Shown: one piece after another, positions 3,030 through 28,759 of the stretch
Layout of the letters: every line of letters begins with the position of its first letter
Numbering within the stretch: the first letter of the stretch is position 1
From: a phage
Length of the DNA: 54,480 bases
Assembly: GCA_018865545.1 (NCBI GenBank)
Contig: GCA_018865545.1_3633.2
Strand: one strand, 5' to 3'
The notes under the pieces: model-generated
What the model saw: only the letters and a program-made list of their open reading frames with translations
Told to the model about the DNA's origin: nothing
The model's database searches: none
Translations under genes and position numbers: made by a program

Positions 3030-3285
3030 TATGATATTTTATCGCTGATATTTGTTTTCCCTGTGATATTTTTGTCACAGGGAAAGTTTCAACAACAGAT
3101 ATTTTCTTGATACTTTAAAACTCTACCAGAATTTAAAATTCTGTAAATTTAGAAAACTATTACTTATAAGCGTTTCGACACAATTTTGTTATGAAAGCCT
3201 TGTTTTTATATAAAAACCTGTTTTAGCATGAGTGGTAGGATCACACTCCATACTACCTTTATTCCTACAGATGAGCACCTCCATG

Positions 3286-3500
3286 TCCGAAAACTCGGTT
3301 CTCGATCGAAAATTCATTTTCCAGATCGTATTTGCTCCTTACGGAGAAAATTTTTTAGGGCTACAAATTTCAGTTCTCGATCAGTTTTTCGATTTCAAAA
3401 TCGTATTTGTTTTTTCTTGCGAAAAATTTCGCACGCTCAGTTCTCGATCGAGTTTTCAAAATCGAAATCGTATTTGCTCTATAGCGCGAAAAAATTTTTA
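3286..3500. repeat. three tandem ~68-bp direct repeats (iteron-like), core GTTCTCGATCG...AAATCGTATTTG
   Basis: Direct inspection: units starting near 3286, 3361 and 3428 share GTTCTCGATC(G/A), TTTTC, AAATCGTATTTG and GCGAAAAAATTT blocks. Confidence 0.6.
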
Positions 3501-3881
3501 TGGGTATCATAATTCTATCACACACTTAAACGCAAAGCAACATAAAAATTTTTGTTGAATGATAATCATTCTCATTTGCAGAATGACAGGTAGGATCGGT
3601 GTCTTATCCTCCCCCGTTGACCATCGTCGCCGTAGTTTGAAGTTTATAGCCGTTCTCGGCTTATCTCTTTGTTAGATATAGATTAACATAATTGATAAAG
3701 AAAGCAAGCGTTAATTGTAATCTTTACGTTTCTTTACAAATTTATTTTTGACGAGTTACCGGCGATCGACCTTCCAACCAGCGCCCTGGTATGTTAGCCC
3801 CGCCTTTACGCCGTGGGGATGGCGTTTCCTCTTCTGTATGTGAAACATTATAAGCCCGACCCCCGGGCTTGTCAAACATTT

Positions 3882-4148
3882 TTATTGTTTATTTTCTTGC
3901 CAGGTTAGGACACCTAGCCAGAAATGGCAATCACCTTTCGCCCATTGTGGTATATTGCTTTCTTTCCCACCTTCCCGCGCCCAGGAATAACCGCCCGTGT
4001 AACTTTGCAATTGATAACTATCCTCGACCTTATAATCTGACAGGCTGAGAACTGTTTCTACCTTTAAGCCCGTTGCGCTCGCTACCTGGTGGATAGTTCC
4101 CCCTTGCCAGCCTAACGCGTGCATAAGGTGCAATGTGGTCGTGGTCAT
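3882..4148 (-). CDS. hypothetical protein (isolated minus-strand gene)
   Basis: 88-aa ORF; AGGA RBS 9 nt upstream; possible divergent promoter TTGCCT-16-TATAGA; hairpin GCCCGGGGGTCGGGC downstream. Confidence 0.4.
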   Translation of the reverse strand: MTTTTLHLMHALGWQGGTIHQVASATGLKVETVLSLSDYKVEDSYQLQSYTGGYSWAREGGKESNIPQWAKGDCHFWLGVLTWQENKQ

Positions 4149-4332: not shown

Positions 4333-4956
4333 ATGAAAACCATCGTTAACGCTGAGAATGTATCTTTCGATAAGTTGAGCGACGCACAAAAAGAAAAAGC
4401 CATTGATCTTATTCGTGAGCGTGAAAGAGAAAGTAATAATGATTTCTTTGCTGATAGTGTCATTGAAGACTATAAGAATGACATTTTGCCAGAGTACGGG
4501 ATCGATGACGCGGTTATCTATTGGTCAGGATTCTGGTCGCAAGGCGACGGCGCATCAATCAGCACTGACCGCGTGGATATTGAAAAATTTTTAAGAAAAG
4601 TTAAATCTTTAACAAAATTCAGAGGGATCCGCAAACTATTTGATCTCGGTGAATATAGTCCGTTATATGCAAGCATTGAGCGGGATAATTACAGCCGCTA
4701 CCACCATGAAAATACTGTTTCCGGTTACGTTGACACTATGTATTGCGGCGATTTAACGGCAAAGCAGGAAGATTTGACCAATCAGCTTGAAAACTTGTTA
4801 ACTGAAACGATCCGCGATCTGTCTTGTAAACTTTACAGAGATTTAGAATCAGCCTACGATGACCAGTTTACAGATGAAGCCATCACAGAATCAATCGAAG
4901 CCAATGATTATCGTTTTGATATTGATGAAGATGGAAAAGTTTACGCTATCGCTTAA
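4333..4956 (+). CDS. hypothetical acidic early protein
   Basis: ORF track; AAAGGGG RBS; shares its first 8 codons (MKTIVNAE) with the gene at 9373. Confidence 0.6.
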   Translation: MKTIVNAENVSFDKLSDAQKEKAIDLIRERERESNNDFFADSVIEDYKNDILPEYGIDDAVIYWSGFWSQGDGASISTDRVDIEKFLRKVKSLTKFRGIRKLFDLGEYSPLYASIERDNYSRYHHENTVSGYVDTMYCGDLTAKQEDLTNQLENLLTETIRDLSCKLYRDLESAYDDQFTDEAITESIEANDYRFDIDEDGKVYAIA

Positions 4957-12598: not shown

Positions 12599-12790
12599 AT
12601 GGATGTACCACAAGTTAGAAAGGTATTAGCAGCGTTACGCTATCACAATCATAGCAAGGTGAAGAATGATCCTGATTATGTTGATTCCAGCTTGGAGGAA
12701 GACACCTTGCAAGCTATAAGCCATATGCAGGAATTGCTTAAGCGTATGACAGAGAAGAACAGATCTGATTATATAGGTGAAGAGATTTAA
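12599..12790 (+). CDS. hypothetical protein
   Basis: ORF track; AAAGGAG RBS. Confidence 0.5.
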   Translation: MDVPQVRKVLAALRYHNHSKVKNDPDYVDSSLEEDTLQAISHMQELLKRMTEKNRSDYIGEEI

Positions 12791-12821
12791 TCTCTTACAA
12801 CCGCACAAAGTAAAATTGTAC

Positions 12822-12850
12822 AAGGGGCGCATTAAGCGCCCTTTATTTTT
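12822..12850 (+). terminator. rho-independent terminator ending the plus-strand cluster
   Basis: Hairpin GGGGCGC-ATTA-AGCGCCC followed by TTTATTTTTG. Confidence 0.6.
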
Positions 12851-13235
12851 GCCCTAACAAGTATGATAAGTTTTATCTATCAAAACACCACACAGAAAAA
12901 AGTGAATAAAACGCGGTATCGAGCTAAACGAGGGCAGACAATACAACGGCAAGGCTGAACATTTAAGGCCGTTATAACGCGATTCAGGCCGCTTAAAATC
13001 GATCCCCACCACGAACAACCCCCACAAAATGACTAAAACGACACAACATGACCTAAATGATAACCATTATCAATAACATAAGCATTTTTATGCGTTTTTA
13101 GTGAATATCTATTTAAATGATAATGACTCTCAACAACAAACTAACACGACCGAAGCGATTTAATCGCCTACCACAAAATTAATCATTTGTAAAGAACAAT
13201 TTAAAAGCTGCGTAAGTGGCGCGACCGTAGGGAGC

Positions 13236-13460
13236 GACACAATAACGCAGTAGTAACCCCTCCCCTCACTCCTTACAGTCGCCCGGTATCGGGCTAGCGT
13301 TATTATGTCGCTACGCGCCAACGCGTTAACAATTTTGCAAAGAAGCCTGCTTTGCAGGTTAAGCGCATTGCGCTTAATCGCGTAGCGACTATGTGAAATT
13401 ATAACAGTTAAATTATTAATAAAATCTTGCAAAATTGTTAACCTACTGCGTTATTGTGTC
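13236..13460. repeat. nested and interleaved inverted repeats
   Basis: 18-bp perfect IR GACACAATAACGCAGTAG (13236-13253) / CTACTGCGTTATTGTGTC (13443-13460); 16-bp IR 13325-13340 / 13427-13442; 11-bp IR GTCGCTACGCG / CGCGTAGCGAC; palindrome TTAAGCGCATTGCGCTTAA. Confidence 0.7.
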
Positions 13461-13849
13461 CGGTACGGATTAGTTACGTATGTAACTAACAACTAACGTT
13501 GCTAAATTGTGTCCTGTATATAATTCGTTAAATTAACCAAATTAATCCCCGATTATTACGCAGTAAATCACCTGCTTTTAACCCTGTTAATGTGCCACGT
13601 AGTGATCTGCTATCTTGCCCAGGGATAACCGCATGGCATGCGGTTAAATGCTGTTAAGTGCCTGAAATGCCAGATCAATTTAGTCACTGCGTGATTATGA
13701 TTGCGACAATAATTTGCTTATGATTTGTTATGCTTTGTTATAATTTGCTATTTATTTGTTAAACACTCTTTTATCTTTCCTCTTTCATTTTTGTTATATT
13801 TGATTTGTTATCGTTTTCTTCCGTTTCATTTCGTTATTGAAAACAAGAA

Positions 13850-15250
13850 TTATTATCATTCATGTGCCTTAACAGGCTGGCAGGTCTGTTAGTGGTCTGG
13901 TTCTCTGTGTGGTCATGTGATGGCTGGCTTAGTAGCTTGGTTTTATTGTCTGGCCTGTTATTGTTAGCTTGCTTGTTGTTGTGTGGTGTATGTATCAGTT
14001 AGCTAGTGTATGATCTGGTGCGCATAACGTGTATTATGTTAAATCACTAAGCCCACAAATAAGGTGGCTTGTCAATAACAATAAGTGCTGTGTGCGGTAG
14101 TCTGGCCCATCAGTGCGCCCCTTTGTTGTGTGGTGCTCTCAGTGTGTGACCTGTCTGCTGTGTGCGCTGCGCCAAATCTCGAGCGGTTCTCGATCACAAT
14201 AGCTGTAAGATATTTTGTAAAGATTCGTAGTTTTTCTTGACACCCACAATCGTCCGTCTAACCCTTCAGAGATTTATCTGTGATTTTTACCCTTCAGAGA
14301 TAAATACAAACTATGAGCTACATCTGCCACAAGCATACCTGCCATGTCACATCACTAATCTTGCAAGGATATTTCTGTAAGTGAACCTGCACACAATGCA
14401 GCACGCGTCTTGTTGTGTGGGGAGGGTGGGGTAACAATCAGGAAGTGGTGTGGCTGTGATAACGTATTGGATAAAAACTCTGGCTGGCTTGTCGATGATA
14501 TTTGTGTGGGGAAATGCTGATGGGTAAGATATAAGACACTTGTCTCCGGCAGGGGTGGGGTGTGGAAAAGAAATGGGCCTGTCCGACCCATTGTGATATA
14601 GAAATGAAATGGCCATCTCACCATTGACCAGGTAAGCCAATATCAAGGCCAAATTCGTGGCACTCATCCCAGTCAAGACTTTGATTCCAGTTTGTAACTG
14701 TCCTCTCTGTGTGGTGGGTGTATGATGCTCTCTGTGACTGCTTTGGCATCTTTTTTGTCTGAGATTTCCCGAAAAGAGGTGTGTTGTCATTGAGTCTTCC
14801 GGCAGCCTTTTCACCCTTTTTGACTTGTCTCCCACAGGCATTCCACTGCTCCAGTGTCCTGTAACACATAAAATCATTCTCCTGTAATATCTGGTGTGAG
14901 GATAATGACAGATTGTATCAGATGCGTCAAGTCTGTTGACCAGAGTGTGTGGGGAGTGGTGTCGTTATAAAAAAAAATTTTAGGGAGCTTTCCATGACTT
15001 ATTCTGTGGCTTCAGCAAGGCCATAAACCCAGATGTGGCGGGGCTTTCAGCTATGTTGTGTGTTGATCGCAAACAAGGATAAAATAATCAATATAAATGC
15101 AGATAAATGTTGTTTTATTGTGTTTGTGTAACTGGGGTGTCGTGTCTTGATAGGTTATGACCTGTACATATTTTGTACAATTGTGTGGTGTGCAGAGTTT
15201 GGGTGGCAATTCCCCAGACGGGGCAGGGTAGGTTATGGTGGAGAGCAGGG
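13850..15250. repeat. GT-skewed non-coding region with recurring TGTGTGG(G) motifs and G-tracts
   Basis: Direct inspection: TGTGTGG-like motifs near 13975, 14125, 14412, 14446, 14503, 14556, 14707, 14945, 15181; GGGGAGGGTGGGG at 14419-14431. Confidence 0.5.
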
Positions 15251-26571: not shown

Positions 26572-27031
26572 TGAGGATACCCATCAAAATATGGCTATTA
26601 CTCAAAAGCCAATCTATGTTTATGCCGCACTCCTCATCAACAATAACTTTGTCGCTATATCTGGAGCACCGGATAACTCTACGAGCATATTCAGCCGCTA
26701 TAGCTGCTTGGTGTATAATTGTAAACCTATCAAGTTCATCTTTAGTAAGATGAATGAACTTAGATTTACCATTCATACAGATGAGATGCTCCAGCAACTC
26801 AATTCTGTTAGAGAACATCAATTCGGCATCCTTCTTAGCAGCACTTTCAGAATAAAACATACTAGCTAAGAGGCTTTTATTAACAATTCTTAAAGAATTA
26901 GCCACCGTGGTCATATATCTGTTATAAAGCTCAGTAGCCATCTCTTCAAACACGTCAGGCTCTACAACACCACAATTCTGTAACTTTACCAAGGTATCGT
27001 TTGTTAAGACACTACAGACAGTATTTTTCAT
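26534..27031 (-). CDS. hypothetical protein
   Basis: ORF track. Confidence 0.45.
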   Translation of the reverse strand: MKNTVCSVLTNDTLVKLQNCGVVEPDVFEEMATELYNRYMTTVANSLRIVNKSLLASMFYSESAAKKDAELMFSNRIELLEHLICMNGKSKFIHLTKDELDRFTIIHQAAIAAEYARRVIRCSRYSDKVIVDEECGINIDWLLSNSHILMGILIENGEGCNAKTE

Positions 27032-27037
27032 TGTCCC

Positions 27038-27346
27038 CTACCTAGCAATTAGATATTGTATCTTTCCGTCATCTTCCTGATACCCAACATCTACAACATA
27101 GTATTCTCCAACATCAGGAATCAACAACTTATCCCCAACCTCGTACTCTTTTGGGGTATGGTATACCATTGATTCTGTAAAATATTTGTACTTATCCGTA
27201 TCGTTAATGTTGCATGAAATTTCCATTTCTCCGTTGTTGTTGGGTATGAGAATATCCTCACCATTCTTTTTCCCAACCACATAACCACCTACCAATGTTT
27301 TAACTAAGCACAGTGTTTTATTGAGTTTGTCTTGGAACTTTGGCAA
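27038..27346 (-). CDS. hypothetical protein
   Basis: ORF track. Confidence 0.45.
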   Translation of the reverse strand: MPKFQDKLNKTLCLVKTLVGGYVVGKKNGEDILIPNNNGEMEISCNINDTDKYKYFTESMVYHTPKEYEVGDKLLIPDVGEYYVVDVGYQEDDGKIQYLIAR

Positions 27347-27962
27347 AAGAATCCTCCATTTTGTCCAGGAATGTTTCCAGGATTTTTATTCTTTCTGGTG
27401 TGTTAAGATTAAGTGTTTTAATCCCTTTCATCTTAGCAAGATTGACAGCAGTAGCCGTGCCGCCTCTTGGATTACCATTCTTATCTTCTTTTGCGAAGTA
27501 GAGCACAAAGGAAGATGGCTTTGGGTTGTTAATATTCACTCCCAACACTTGATGCACATTCCTAGAATGTAACGCAAATGCTGCTCTGTTTCTCAACAAT
27601 GCTTGTGGGTTTGGATGCACCTTTTGCACCAACTCATCTCGGTATTCTATTTGATCGATATATAGATGGTTAATATATTGTAAGCCATAATCCCAGTTAT
27701 CGTACAAATCCACTTCTTTATCGCCAAAACCTTTCCATGGTATGTAAATTTCTGCGAGTCTGTTACCATACAATATTTTGGTTTTATCGTCAAGGCTATC
27801 GAAATATCGCTGCATCCCTCTCTGGAACGCCGCATCAGCCCCTTCTGCCTTACCGCTCCGCAATGTAAACCCTAACCCAGCCAGTCTAAAAGCAGCGTCT
27901 TCCATGACGCTGATAACTTCTGGGGGTGTTTCACGAGAACCTACCCCAGTATAATAACGCAT
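27318..27962 (-). CDS. DprA/Smf-like Rossmann-fold (SLOG) protein
   Basis: YTGVGSRETP...LRSGKAEGADAAFQRG resembles the DprA GSR...SG.A.G.D core. Confidence 0.45.
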   Translation of the reverse strand: MRYYTGVGSRETPPEVISVMEDAAFRLAGLGFTLRSGKAEGADAAFQRGMQRYFDSLDDKTKILYGNRLAEIYIPWKGFGDKEVDLYDNWDYGLQYINHLYIDQIEYRDELVQKVHPNPQALLRNRAAFALHSRNVHQVLGVNINNPKPSSFVLYFAKEDKNGNPRGGTATAVNLAKMKGIKTLNLNTPERIKILETFLDKMEDSFAKVPRQTQ

Positions 27963-27970
27963 AAACCCCC

Positions 27971-28759
27971 TTATGATGCCATTGGTGTGTAAATACCTTT
28001 ATCTCTGTCTTTCAACAATCCCTTGGCGATTTCCTTGACAACACCACCACGGACTACATCCTGTAGTTGATTAAATTGAACAATACCCACACCAGAAATA
28101 TTATGTCTGTGGAGAAAATCTTCAACCCATTCCAAACCAGAGACACCACGTATATCTTTTTGACTTTCATCCCCCATGATGACAAGAGTGCAATTATCTG
28201 AAATACGAGTTACAATACTCAGCATTTCTTCTGGAGTGCTTTGTTGTGCCTCGTCAATCAGTAGAAAGCTGTTTTCATCAAACGATCTTCCTCTAATACT
28301 CTCCAACTCTTGCACCTCGATACGTCCATGCAGTCCATCTTTCAATGAATTATAATACGCCCCATCACCCATTCTTTTACGAATTGTATCGAGCATATTC
28401 CTTACGTAAGGATATAGTTTCTCCAGAGTAGAACCAGGTTTGAATCCAGAGGTCTTTCCCGTTTGCACATATGGCCTTGCCACAATGATTTTATCTATCT
28501 CGTTTTTCCTGAGAAGATCTGCTGCATATGCAGAGGCGAGATATGTTTTTCCTGTTCCAAAAATCCCTTTGGCTATAATGATGTTACATGTCTTAAGTTT
28601 TTGGAGATAATCTTGTTGTTTTTTATTCATAGCAACAAGTGCTGGGGCGCTGTTTCTATCTTCCTCAAACTTAGGGTTGTATTTCATCTTTCTTTCAGCA
28701 CGTTCTTTCTTCCTTGCTGCAAGTTTTAAAGCACGCGTCTCTTTACTTCTTCCCATCAA
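27971..28759 (-). CDS. phoH: PhoH-like ATPase
   Basis: Walker A GIFGTGKTYLA, LLIDEAQQ and IMGDESQKD motifs typical of PhoH. Confidence 0.8.
   Translation of the reverse strand: MMGRSKETRALKLAARKKERAERKMKYNPKFEEDRNSAPALVAMNKKQQDYLQKLKTCNIIIAKGIFGTGKTYLASAYAADLLRKNEIDKIIVARPYVQTGKTSGFKPGSTLEKLYPYVRNMLDTIRKRMGDGAYYNSLKDGLHGRIEVQELESIRGRSFDENSFLLIDEAQQSTPEEMLSIVTRISDNCTLVIMGDESQKDIRGVSGLEWVEDFLHRHNISGVGIVQFNQLQDVVRGGVVKEIAKGLLKDRDKGIYTPMAS

Follow-up and report, generated by a model that had tools for sequence, protein, structure and literature searches.

Nested inverted repeats in the gene-free hub of an Avunavirus fragment as the putative core of an interrupted hairpin-forming module kept in rV5-like and phi92-like Escherichia coli phages

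What purpose do nested and interleaved perfect inverted repeats serve in a stretch of phage DNA that carries no genes? The window, which refers here to the whole 54,480-bp stretch that was analysed, is a fragment of an Avunavirus (Vequintavirinae), and its repeats are located in a gene-free hub of approximately 1.5 kb with convergent gene arrays on either side. All four repeat features pointed out by an earlier, sequence-only reading of this DNA are present exactly as it described them. These include an 18-bp pair (13236-13253 / 13443-13460) and a 16-bp pair (13325-13340 / 13427-13442), both with 100 % complementarity and with 189 and 86 nt, respectively, between the arms, an 11-bp pair (13307-13317 / 13379-13389) and a 19-bp palindrome (TTAAGCGCATTGCGCTTAA; 13359-13377). 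The order of the inner arms in the window (11-mer, 16-mer, 11-mer', 16-mer'; B, C, B', C') had likewise been read correctly. The 18-bp and 16-bp pairs are the longest two perfect inverted repeats in the window (gap 3-300), with two pairs of at least 16 bp observed as opposed to a mean of 0.01 in 100 dinucleotide-preserving shuffles, where the longest arm across all 100 was 16 bp. Taken alone, the 11-bp pair falls within chance (11 pairs of at least 11 bp observed vs 5.2 expected) and is explained as a duplicated GTCGCTACGCG word riding on an inverted segment. A further pair, absent from the earlier reading, joins 13233-13248 and 13297-13312 (16 nt; 94 %), and the left arm thus has an alternative partner. 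Folding predictions, which the same reading had named as a check, identify 13200-13500 as strongly fold-prone with non-random repeats, with z-scores of -7.5 (plus strand) and -6.8 (minus strand) for RNA and -8.7 for DNA.

Together, the 18-bp and 16-bp pairs form one 34-bp interrupted palindrome. This runs from stem I (18 bp) through a 71-nt insert on one side only to stem II (16 bp) and an AT-rich apical loop, the size of which ranges from 33 to 86 nt. A third arm copy lies within the insert, together with a C-rich tract and a small hairpin. The following parts could be distinguished:

13208-13230, plus strand: candidate counterpart of the upstream hairpin P0 (CTGCG ... CGTAG, one G-T pair), directly 5' of the left arm
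13236-13253, no strand assigned: left arm of stem I, GACACAATAACGCAGTAG, with 18/18 columns invariant in five genomes
13254-13296, plus strand: one-sided insert with the C-rich tract TAACCCCTCCCCTCACTCC and the small hairpin GCCCGGTATCGGGC (13281-13294), as read from the sequence
13297-13312, plus strand: third copy of the arm motif, GCGTTATTATGTCGCT, pairing at 15/16 positions with 13233-13248
13307-13317, no strand assigned: first GTCGCTACGCG 11-mer, a direct repeat of the second copy in phage Av-05
13325-13340, no strand assigned: left arm of stem II, GTTAACAATTTTGCAA, invariant in five genomes
13341-13426, no strand assigned: 86-bp apical segment, inverted in the window phage relative to Av-05
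13341-13392, minus strand: 52-nt hairpin cassette, with the 19-bp palindrome, a terminator-like hairpin (13346-13358) and the second 11-mer (13379-13389)
13396-13426, minus strand: AT-rich core of the apical loop, 28/31 bases A or T
13412-13441, minus strand: promoter-like site TTAACA-18-AATAAT, 10/12 consensus matches
13427-13460, no strand assigned: contiguous right arm, the 16-mer TTGCAAAATTGTTAAC followed by the 18-mer CTACTGCGTTATTGTGTC, with 34/34 columns invariant in five genomes
13461-13645, plus strand: hypervariable array of units, with 25 % invariant columns and whole units gained or lost between genomes

The conservation values derive from a comparison of five Avunavirus-type sequences (the window, Av-05, 18-1-2, L062 and L064). 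All 68 arm columns are invariant among the five, vs 57 % of columns hub-wide. As the arms never vary within Avunavirus, covariation is not demonstrable in the window's own clade. The upstream hairpin at 13208-13230 is invariant at all but one position and matches by position, weakly and by eye, the CTAyGCCGGACACrTAG hairpin preceding the left arm in the Stephanstirmvirinae, while 64 % of the columns of the insert at 13254-13296 are invariant. Both partners of the left 18-mer (13443-13460 and 13297-13312) are kept in 5/5 sequences. The 13233/13297 pairing is perfect (16/16) in Av-05 and 18-1-2, and its single mismatch in the window, L062 and L064 is C-A on the plus strand, which corresponds to G-U on the minus strand. 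The left 18-mer has a genuine choice of pairing, with 13443-13460 or with 13297-13312. The AT-rich core, which carries AATAAT and TGTTATAAT (13398-13406) on the minus strand, represents the minimal loop of 33-34 nt found in 5/5 genomes. In each unit of the adjacent array, an arm-like motif (e.g. 13499-13514; TTGCTAAATTGTGTCC) is combined with a mini-hairpin, seen at 13460-13468 (CCGGTACGG), and with a palindrome of 17-21 bp, seen at 13470-13489 (TTAGTTACGTATGTAACTAA). The arms belong to the motif family GCnWWATTRTKWMC, with six hub copies in both orientations, all within 13235-13514 (280 bp). The four exact matches to this motif in the window are all among these six copies.

The interleaved order B, C, B', C' had been taken to imply alternative cruciforms or a pseudoknotted RNA. 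Relative to Av-05, the 86-bp segment shows 84/86 identity as its reverse complement and no similarity in the forward direction (global alignment scores of 82 and -12, respectively), and the inversion breakpoints fall exactly at the 16-bp arms. Because the segment lies in the opposite orientation in Av-05, its two 11-mers are direct repeats there, while 18-1-2, L062 and L064 have neither the second 11-mer nor the 19-bp palindrome at the corresponding site. The 52-nt cassette is identical in Av-05 and 18-1-2 (52/52), yet it occupies two different hub sites; it occurs as a single copy per genome and is absent from L062 and L064. With one inversion and a movable 52-nt cassette, the interleaved order is thus a by-product and not a conserved structure, and it is specific to the window lineage. 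No conserved pseudoknot was found among the five Avunavirus-type sequences, as the interleaved helices are not kept, so that what remains of the pseudoknot and alternative-cruciform proposal is the alternative pairing of the left 18-mer, with the interleaving lost as its basis. Conservation of the repeats in related phages holds for the arms of the 18-bp and 16-bp pairs but not for the second 11-mer and the 19-bp palindrome. Template switching or recombination between oppositely oriented motif copies may have flipped the 86-bp tip, and short-homology recombination may shift the hairpin cassette about the hub; together, these events would give the interleaved look.

An exact inversion between repeats could also be the mark of a programmed invertible switch (inverton), reversing a promoter-terminator unit between the 16-bp arms. 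Each arm would give an identical -35 element (TTAACA) and the segment the -10 element, with transcription directed to the right into the hairpin array or to the left into the C-rich half. The breakpoints at the arms, and the perfect and invariant 16-bp inverted repeats which directly bound the segment, agree with such a switch. A promoter-like site (10/12) is rebuilt either way, on the plus strand in Av-05 and L062 and on the minus strand in the window, and the terminator-like hairpin flips together with the segment (minus strand in the window, plus strand in Av-05). However, the two orientations differ between lineages (window vs Av-05), with the flipped state occurring in 1/5 and the other four sharing one state, for which a single historical event suffices, and the sister-sample assemblies L062 and L063 have the same orientation. 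A scan of the ten largest proteins encoded in the window, itself part of a genome of approximately 120-135 kb, revealed no recombinase domain. A length of 86 bp is short for known invertase synapses, which counts against an inverton. Furthermore, the homologous palindrome of the Stephanstirmvirinae has a 3-nt loop only and thus nothing to invert, and the 18-bp and 15-bp arms show no orientation polymorphism in 24 genomes. Promoter-like sites are not enriched vs shuffles, and that at 13412-13441, with its -35 within the 16-bp arm and its -10 within the invertible segment, is a consensus match only. A programmed switch is therefore considered very improbable. The same small chance is given to a functional switch of this kind in a strictly lytic phage, in which the flip would send a small transcript to one or the other side of a conserved folded module, the latter being in that case a novel structured RNA or single-stranded-DNA element that two phage subfamilies share.

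Blast matches were obtained for the rV5-type module in 120 records and for the alia-type module in 133 (about 250 records in two subfamilies), 24 of which were examined in detail. The module is about 150-230 bp in size, lies at the hub centre and occurs as a single copy at one locus in every genome examined. Vequintavirus (rV5-like) modules have 18-bp arms and the same arm-TAACC-C-rich order, the stem I left arm of the window being homologous to the rV5 arm GACATAATATAAAAGCAG with TAACC and the C-rich tract next in both. The modules of the Stephanstirmvirinae (phi92- and phAPEC8-like) have 15-16-bp arms, and the order of arm, C-rich tract and small hairpin is found in both rV5-like and phi92-like modules. 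The stem II left arm holds TTGCAA, a word of the Stephanstirmvirinae palindrome CTTGCAA-N3-TTGCAAG, in which the half-sites are invariant and the spacer is free. Each internal hairpin is a perfect palindrome whose loop measures 3 nt, and the four arm variants of the Stephanstirmvirinae (AACGCA, AAGCCA, AACACA and ACCGCA) are each perfectly complementary. Across ten sequences, 98.7 % of cells pair and 13 pairs have changed on both sides, giving a covariation score of 0.252, vs 0.082 in shuffles (0/500 reach 0.252) and at most 0.044 with the partners slid. These compensatory changes are spread over four helices of a multi-helix junction. Because complementarity is preserved in this way, selection acts on a folded form, be it a single strand or a cruciform. 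With the Stephanstirmvirinae alone as its basis, a covariance model detects the Vequintavirus modules at 32-38 bits (E of about 1e-6 to 1e-7), and places its closing stem on the Avunavirus 16-bp pair with weak scores (16-23 bits). The 18-bp pair was nevertheless preferred as the closing stem, because in every clade it is this arm that has the TAACC/C-rich tract and the small hairpin after it; the assignment was made by eye and not by score. On these comparisons, the nested repeats form the core of a long, interrupted module able to fold into a hairpin, which rV5-like and phi92-like phages of E. coli have retained.

The orientation of the module is opposite in Vequintavirus, the C-rich strand being co-oriented with the left genes in Avunavirus and the Stephanstirmvirinae, and with the right genes in Vequintavirus; in the Stephanstirmvirinae the module lies between co-directional genes. 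In 24 genomes, the module as a whole always had the same orientation with respect to the hairpin upstream of it. An exact-word scan of IMG/VR returned only Av-05 itself, two rV5-like and two phi92-like contigs, that of GTDB genomes one chance match only and that of metagenomes three useful contigs and one chance match (L065), while no Blast match to the module was obtained in E. coli genomes or plasmids.

The best guess as to function, with a probability of roughly one in three, is that the feature is the Avunavirus version of a module central to the non-coding hub of the Vequintavirinae and Stephanstirmvirinae, and that this module is a DNA hairpin or cruciform element tied to a replication origin. 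It would work at the DNA level as part of the phage origin region. An initiator or negative supercoiling would melt the AT-rich tip, whereupon the arms, being perfectly complementary, could form hairpins or a cruciform on both strands, and the exposed single strands and repeated arm motifs would offer a loading place for the phage primase-helicase. The lack of one-sided pair changes, the scarcity of G-U on either strand (2 U-G and 6 A-C among 470 cells) and the perfect palindromic hairpins are features pointing to the DNA level. As in iteron-type origins, an AT-rich candidate unwinding element is present (13396-13426; 28/31 A+T), with a GC content of 0.30-0.33 across 13400-13900. Iteron-like direct repeats adjoin the module (10-bp unit x4.8 at 13712-13761), and the rV5 hub has 15-16-bp periodic repeat arrays. 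The 10-bp array and the cluster of six motif copies in the window are candidate iterons of low conservation, with 15-25 % of columns invariant between genomes. The hub is flanked on both sides by an intrinsic terminator and C-rich, G-poor incoming strands. In phage alia, where the hub lies between co-directional genes, the GC skew rises from 0.069 to 0.180 (p = 2e-5) and the AT skew falls from 0.130 to 0.040 (p = 3e-4) across the hub. These changes run in the direction expected at an origin but could instead reflect differing gene classes, and the skew test in the window is confounded by its convergent genes. No transposon insertions are reported to occur in an approximately 2-kb convergent intergenic region of Bas54 (Vequintavirinae; preprint 10.1101/2025.11.20.689424), which, given its synteny with Bas55 and Bas58, is probably the same hub. 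The promoter-like and terminator-like sites within and beside the module count against an origin. DnaA boxes (TTWTNCACA) are lacking from 12845-14346, the nearest being at 14561 and the window total below chance, and neither an initiator gene nor a binding protein could be identified. Since phage FV3 is without the module, the latter cannot be the sole essential origin. Furthermore, the module is oriented according to the upstream gene array closest to it, for which a transcribed element is a better explanation than an origin with symmetry.

The main rival, with a slightly lower probability than the origin, is that the module may be transcribed and work as RNA, either as a structured non-coding RNA or as a 3'-end element of the upstream gene array. 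As a 3'-end element, the long hairpin would be a terminator, stabiliser or RNase III site, the hairpin array behind it would shield against exonucleases, and the strict Watson-Crick stems would reflect a need to fold in transcripts from both directions. In favour of RNA, the structure is a multi-helix junction, four helices of which show compensatory changes, and in three clades the module is oriented after the closest gene array upstream of it. The last hairpin of rV5-like modules has CUGCUUUUAUAUU behind it and was annotated as a terminator by the depositors of phage Murica. In the window, a pair of hairpins and a T-run lie about 50 nt beyond the promoter-like site and TGTTATAAT, a layout that small RNAs typically have. 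Mismatches lean to G-U on the G-rich strand (four independent A-C events vs one U-G, on the C-rich strand), including that of the 13233/13297 helix, and the viability of FV3 in its module-free form fits an accessory RNA. However, Rfam gave no match even at E up to 5, with no family at the gathering threshold for the whole window and only chance-level miRNA matches (E of at least 1.4) for 12800-14400. The near-absence of G-U pairs on both strands, combined with the lack of one-sided changes, is unusual for RNA helices, and perfect palindromes with 3-nt loops also speak for DNA. The promoter position is not conserved across clades and its sites are consensus matches only, and the orientation suggests the C-rich strand as the transcript whereas the wobble pairs suggest the opposite, G-rich strand. 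A selfish or neutral repeat with no function of its own, be it MITE-like with 18-bp terminal inverted repeats or a set of recombination scars in a hyperplastic region likened to the PeSL cassettes of T4-like phages, would explain the perfect terminal repeats, the small size, the opposite orientation in Vequintavirus, the movement of the 52-nt cassette between two hub sites and the gain and loss of units in the adjacent array. It would also account for FV3, which has one copy of a flanking 20-bp direct repeat and an empty site, for the 20-bp direct repeats flanking the rV5 module, and for Vequintavirus modules that are near-identical (93-99 %) beside an adjoining flank of only 41-83 % identity, as after horizontal spread. 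The rV5 repeats are nonetheless non-adjacent to the arms (76 and 13 bp away) and are therefore not target-site duplications, and no direct repeats abut the arms in the window. Dispersed multiple copies were not found, each genome examined having one locus, nor were there copies in E. coli genomes or plasmids. The same hub kept across two subfamilies with compensatory substitutions argues for selection on pairing and not for recent copying, which makes a functionless repeat improbable. Slightly less credit still is due to a pac site, or a late cis-acting double-stranded DNA site, of which the module would be a part, with its inverted motifs binding a dimeric protein. Vequintaviruses package by the headful and have permuted ends (PMC8407724, PMC13211470), and a pac site must therefore exist somewhere. 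Six copies of one motif in both orientations in 280 bp, the invariant half-sites and free spacer of CTTGCAA-N3-TTGCAAG, and the many database records that begin within about 1 kb of the module would suit such a site. These start points are, however, conventions and not mapped ends, no published terminus mapping places pac at the hub, and FV3 is without the module. Hairpin P2, unlike a sequence-specific site, varies freely in sequence among close relatives and stays a hairpin.

Several other candidates at the locus were discarded. No tRNA or tmRNA was found using ARAGORN, and no Fur box occurs within three mismatches, a Fur-like box seen by eye having four. A small hydrophobic ORF at 13862-14002 seemed to be shared by the window and Av-05, yet in 18-1-2, L062 and L064 it proved to be out of frame or truncated, and a 90-aa ORF across the repeats (13160-13432, minus strand) is broken in relatives by the inversion and non-triplet indels. 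No description of the module was found in the literature searched on Vequintavirinae, Phapecoctavirus and phage origins. The rV5-like and phi92-like myoviruses are often isolated and have therapeutic and biocontrol use, and their gene-free hub of 1.5-2.6 kb is here narrowed to a discrete central module. A folded structure has strong statistical support and its helices have been delimited, which makes the module a concrete experimental target. The locus also shows how, in a regulatory region of a phage, short motif copies of opposite orientation drive inversions on a small scale and the movement of cassettes.

Elements of several known systems can be recognised in the hub. The PeSL cassettes of T4-like phages are short composite units of an early-promoter-like element and a stem-loop, which recur in a myovirus genome and mark hyperplastic regions where recombination adds, removes and exchanges segments (PMC2839356, PMC4122927). 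As with these, motif and hairpin units of the hub come and go, with the 52-nt cassette moved and the 86-bp segment flipped. PeSLs flank variable ORFs and are dispersed over several regions, whereas there are no ORFs between the hub units, all copies lie in one 300-bp cluster, the core palindrome is conserved across subfamilies with covariation, and the promoter is at consensus level only. Invertible promoter switches include fimS of E. coli, the Bacteroides invertons and the Gin/Cin/Hin segments. As in these switches, a short segment is enclosed by perfect inverted repeats and occurs in either orientation among related genomes, and a promoter-like element changes direction with it; in contrast to the classical switches, the segment is smaller (86 bp), the -35 would lie inside the repeat and the two states are seen between lineages. 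The REP/BIME elements of enterobacteria are extragenic clusters of palindromic units in alternating orientation. The hub likewise has imperfectly related palindromes of alternating orientation, extragenic and at the 3' ends of convergent genes, but the module has no similarity to E. coli genomes and is confined to a single locus, and these phages are not known to have a RAYT-type transposase. A terminator was expected between genes 163 and 164 of rV5 but was not found (PMC3606486). An intrinsic or bidirectional terminator would be expected at such a convergent junction, and the module resembles one in its small hairpin with a T-run (13346-13358) and in arms whose 5' end is rich in A and whose 3' end is rich in U, whichever strand is read. 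It differs in that the 18-bp and 16-bp stems are split by 86-189 nt with no T-run after them, a GC-rich hairpin with a U-run being found only at 13346-13358 on the minus strand. Among replication origins, lambda ori combines iterons, an AT-rich stretch and a palindrome, while oriF and oriG of T4 combine a promoter and an unwinding element. The module is unlike phage and plasmid origins in having no DnaA boxes, in being missing from the viable FV3 and in hairpins that covary like a folded single strand. It resembles them in forming a gene-free site with an AT-rich core flanked by perfect inverted repeats, with short direct repeats adjoining, insulation from incoming transcription and a skew step in one relative.

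The repeats are located in a stretch of ~1.5 kb without genes, here termed the hub, of an Avunavirus-type genome fragment (Vequintavirinae, rV5-like myoviruses) whose nearest records are Av-05 (92 %) and 18-1-2 with its near-identical records (90 %). The left-hand + strand genes stop near 12790, ahead of a strong intrinsic terminator (12822-12844), and the right-hand - strand genes stop at 14347 or beyond. All four features noticed in the sequence-only reading are present in the sequence exactly:

13236-13253 / 13443-13460, 18-bp perfect inverted repeat (stem I)
13325-13340 / 13427-13442, 16-bp perfect inverted repeat (stem II)
13307-13317 / 13379-13389, 11-bp inverted pair
13359-13377, 19-bp palindrome

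A whole-window scan identified the 18- and 16-bp pairs as the two longest perfect inverted repeats of the window, with 0.01 inverted pairs of at least 16 bp expected per dinucleotide-preserving shuffle, and the 11-bp pair by itself falls within chance. A further pair, overlooked in that reading (13233-13248 with 13297-13312, 15/16 complementary), gives the left 18-bp arm two candidate partners. In the right arm the 16-mer runs directly into the 18-mer (TTGCAAAATTGTTAAC, then CTACTGCGTTATTGTGTC; 13427-13460), and the left arm is the reverse complement of these 34 bases, interrupted by a 71-nt insert. Being contiguous on the right and split on the left, the 34 bases thus form one interrupted palindrome, the module, comprising in order stem I (18 bp), the one-sided insert with a C-rich tract, a small hairpin (GCCCGGTATCGGGC) and a third arm copy, stem II (16 bp) and the apical loop. 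Six copies of the arm motif family (GCnWWATTRTKWMC), including 4/4 exact matches of the window, occur in 13235-13514, split 2:4 between the two orientations.

Five independent Avunavirus-type sequences were compared (the window, Av-05, 18-1-2 and the metagenome contigs L062 and L064; contig L063 is identical to L062 over the shared region), using an alignment made with the window's tip turned back for the column counts. Invariant columns make up 68/68 of the arms, 57 % of the hub overall, 28 % of the apical segment and 25 % of the unit array to the right of the module (13461-13645), in which each unit consists of an arm-like motif, a mini-hairpin and a 17-21-bp palindrome. This array is hypervariable, with entire units differing among genomes, and its mini-hairpin shows a compensatory change (CCGGTACGG versus CACGTAGTG). 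A tandem array at 13712-13761, with ~4.8 copies of the 10-bp unit ATTTGTTATG (one copy per helical turn), is likewise variable in length and sequence across the five genomes compared, with 15 % of columns invariant.

Relative to Av-05, the window has the 86-bp segment enclosed by the 16-bp arms exactly inverted (84/86 as reverse complement; no forward similarity). In its minimal form (18-1-2, L062 and L064) the apical loop is an AT-rich stretch of 33-34 nt, and the loops of the window and Av-05 carry 52 extra nt, a cassette containing the 19-bp palindrome, a terminator-like hairpin and the second 11-mer. This cassette, single-copy per genome and not found in L062 or L064, is 52/52 identical between Av-05 and 18-1-2, in the latter of which it lies ~270 bp further right. 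No target duplication was found at its sites:

Window 13341-13392, 52-nt cassette
Av-05 (L002) 4576-4627, 52-nt cassette
18-1-2 (L001) about 4848-4899, 52-nt cassette

In behaviour it resembles a small movable unit. The tip inversion, the short minimal loop with its 52-nt addition and the differing cassette site explain the interleaved order of the inner pairs (11-mer, 16-mer, 11-mer', 16-mer'), which had been read as implying alternative cruciforms or a pseudoknotted RNA and proves a lineage-specific accident rather than a conserved pseudoknot, the two 11-mers being direct repeats in Av-05. A promoter-like site (TTAACA-18-AATAAT, 10/12 matches) has its -35 in the 16-bp arm and its -10 in the segment and is therefore rebuilt in either orientation, being directed to the right in Av-05 and L062 but to the left in the window, with the terminator-like hairpin flipping along. 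Although this follows the logic of an invertible promoter, a programmed switch is the least probable of the readings considered, as promoter-like matches are not enriched over shuffles, the flipped state occurs in one lineage only, and no recombinase is found among the window's ten largest proteins. The inversion is explained more simply by one template-switch or short-homology recombination event between the arms.

From either side, the strand running into the hub is rich in C and poor in G, with the composition switching at the repeat cluster, and the rV5 hub has the same mirror-image composition. The stretches concerned are 12900-13200 and 13800-14100 in the window, where GC skew reaches -0.41 and +0.33, and 2000-2300 and 3700-3900 in rV5 (L066). 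Such incoming strands resemble Rho-utilisation tracts or, alternatively, origin-type skew. The rV5 genome paper draws the hub as a "non-coding" box and did not find the expected bidirectional terminator (PMC3606486). In Bas54 (Vequintavirinae), a ~2-kb convergent intergenic region is reported to have received zero transposon insertions (2025 preprint, 10.1101/2025.11.20.689424), and this region is probably the same hub, since the syntenic Bas55 and Bas58 both carry the module there. Directly after the left array's terminator, window 12826-12996 shows ~75 % identity to the hub region of >100 Stephanstirmvirinae genomes and is therefore non-coding sequence conserved across subfamilies; it includes GTATCGAGCTAA, similar to the AV126 sequence directly before the left arm. 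Fur-box-like palindromes (AAATGATAAYCATT(ATC)) occur at window 13053-13071 and 13113-13127 (15/19 to the E. coli Fur box by eye) and four times in the hub of phage alia (L072; 1368, 1426, 2283 and 2477), and the 19-bp E. coli consensus has no match in the window at up to three mismatches. A highly hydrophobic 46-aa ORF (13862-14002, + strand) keeps its frame in Av-05, where 15 codons are deleted, but in 18-1-2, L062 and L064 it is either truncated or no longer in frame, and it is thus probably not a gene. Alia (L088, NC_052655) has a second gene-poor stretch of ~1.5 kb (26768-28298), 11 kb upstream of its hub, with two annotated repeat_regions (record coordinates 76984-77109 and 77211-77251).

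Twenty-four genomes were studied in detail. In the rV5 hub (2.6 kb), the arms of a perfect 18-bp pair (GACATAATATAAAAGCAG / CTGCTTTTATATTATGTC) lie 116-149 nt apart and enclose further nested stems; as in the window, TAACC and a C-rich tract come after the arm. Relative to L070 and other Vequintavirus, rV5 has a 33-nt insertion (L066 3299-3331) in the apical loop of the long hairpin, stem tips being where insertions are tolerated, as in Avunavirus. The region 3' of the module is the most variable in Vequintavirus (41-83 % identity versus 93-99 % within the module). A unit of ~294 bp between two copies of the 20-bp direct repeat GCCATGaCATTCGTTTGCAT (rV5 3144-3457) is entirely missing in FV3 (L071, NC_019517; about 1780-1830), which has one repeat copy and no module. 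FV3 is viable and represents a naturally occurring deletion of the module. The phi92- and phAPEC8-like hubs (Stephanstirmvirinae; 1.6-1.8 kb) contain a 15-16-bp pair (GCTAATAATAAnnCA) whose arm variants (AACGCA, AAGCCA, AACACA and ACCGCA) are each perfectly complemented by the other arm. A Stephanstirmvirinae-only covariance model finds Vequintavirus modules at full length (32-38 bits), on the opposite strand relative to the flanking genes, and the Avunavirus element weakly (16-23 bits), laying its closing stem on the 16-bp pair. The shared order of arm, TAACC, C-rich tract and hairpin suggests, however, that the 18-bp pair corresponds to this closing stem. By Blast, the rV5-type module has matches in 120 phage records and the alia-type module in 133. 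The module matches nothing in Rfam or in E. coli genomes and plasmids, and the literature searched contains no description of it. The Vequintavirus or Justusliebigvirus hubs of approximately 20 MG0656xx records ('Campylobacter phage', host C. jejuni) share 80-99 % identity with E. coli phage hubs, and the names or hosts of these records look doubtful.

Six helices were defined on ten sequences, namely an upstream hairpin, the closing stem, a 5-bp stem, a 9-bp hairpin, a CTTGCAA-N3-TTGCAAG palindrome and a 4-bp stem. Standard pairs occupy 98.7 % of the 470 cells, and 13/47 pairs changed on both sides. Covariation scores 0.252, compared with 0.082 in shuffles (0/500 reach 0.252) and at most 0.044 with partners slid. 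The element is real, well supported by covariation and directly testable. As the hairpin varies freely among close relatives yet changes compensatorily, the comparison argues for selection on pairing in a folded strand, and against a sequence-specific double-stranded binding site. No pairs vary on one side only, G-U is nearly absent on both strands (U-G 2/470 and A-C 6/470 cells), and the internal hairpins are perfect palindromes with 3-nt loops. The first two properties are unusual for RNA, and all three fit a structure obliged to pair on both strands, be it as a cruciform, as hairpins in each of the single strands or in transcripts running in both directions.

Ranked first, with a rough probability of 0.35, is a DNA-level, origin-associated hairpin or cruciform element. 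In its favour are the AT-rich tip (28/31), the short tandem or phased direct repeats adjoining the module in the window and rV5, the insulation of the module from transcription and the insertion-free Bas54 hub (10.1101/2025.11.20.689424). In alia, where the genes flanking the hub are co-directional, GC and AT skew furthermore take a significant step across it, in the sense expected of an origin. The viability of FV3, the lack of DnaA boxes and the lack of a known initiator protein count against an origin. A transcribed structured RNA or RNA 3'-end element ranks a close second: the module is oriented with the nearest upstream gene array in 3/3 clades, a U-run follows the last hairpin in rV5-like phages (annotated as a terminator in Murica) and the few mismatches tend to be G-U when read on the G-rich strand, but the scarcity of G-U on both strands and the lack of one-sided changes speak against it. 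The DNA-level and transcription signals conflict. A neutral or selfish repeat is improbable, and a pac or other protein-binding site slightly more so, the hairpin sequence changing freely while pairing is kept. Together with the programmed switch, these readings do not take up the whole probability.

Among the nearest known systems are palindrome- and repeat-rich origin regions, from which the window element differs in lacking DnaA boxes, and the PeSL promoter/stem-loop cassettes that mediate shuffling in T4-like phages (PMC2839356, PMC4122927), from which it differs in having no ORFs between units. Invertible promoter switches, REP/BIME clusters and bidirectional terminators are also close, although the long stems here have no U-run after them; the element has no target-site duplications and no dispersed copies. 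While missing at least one defining feature of each of these systems, it shows part of those of each, and is a conserved hairpin-forming non-coding element of the phage hub.
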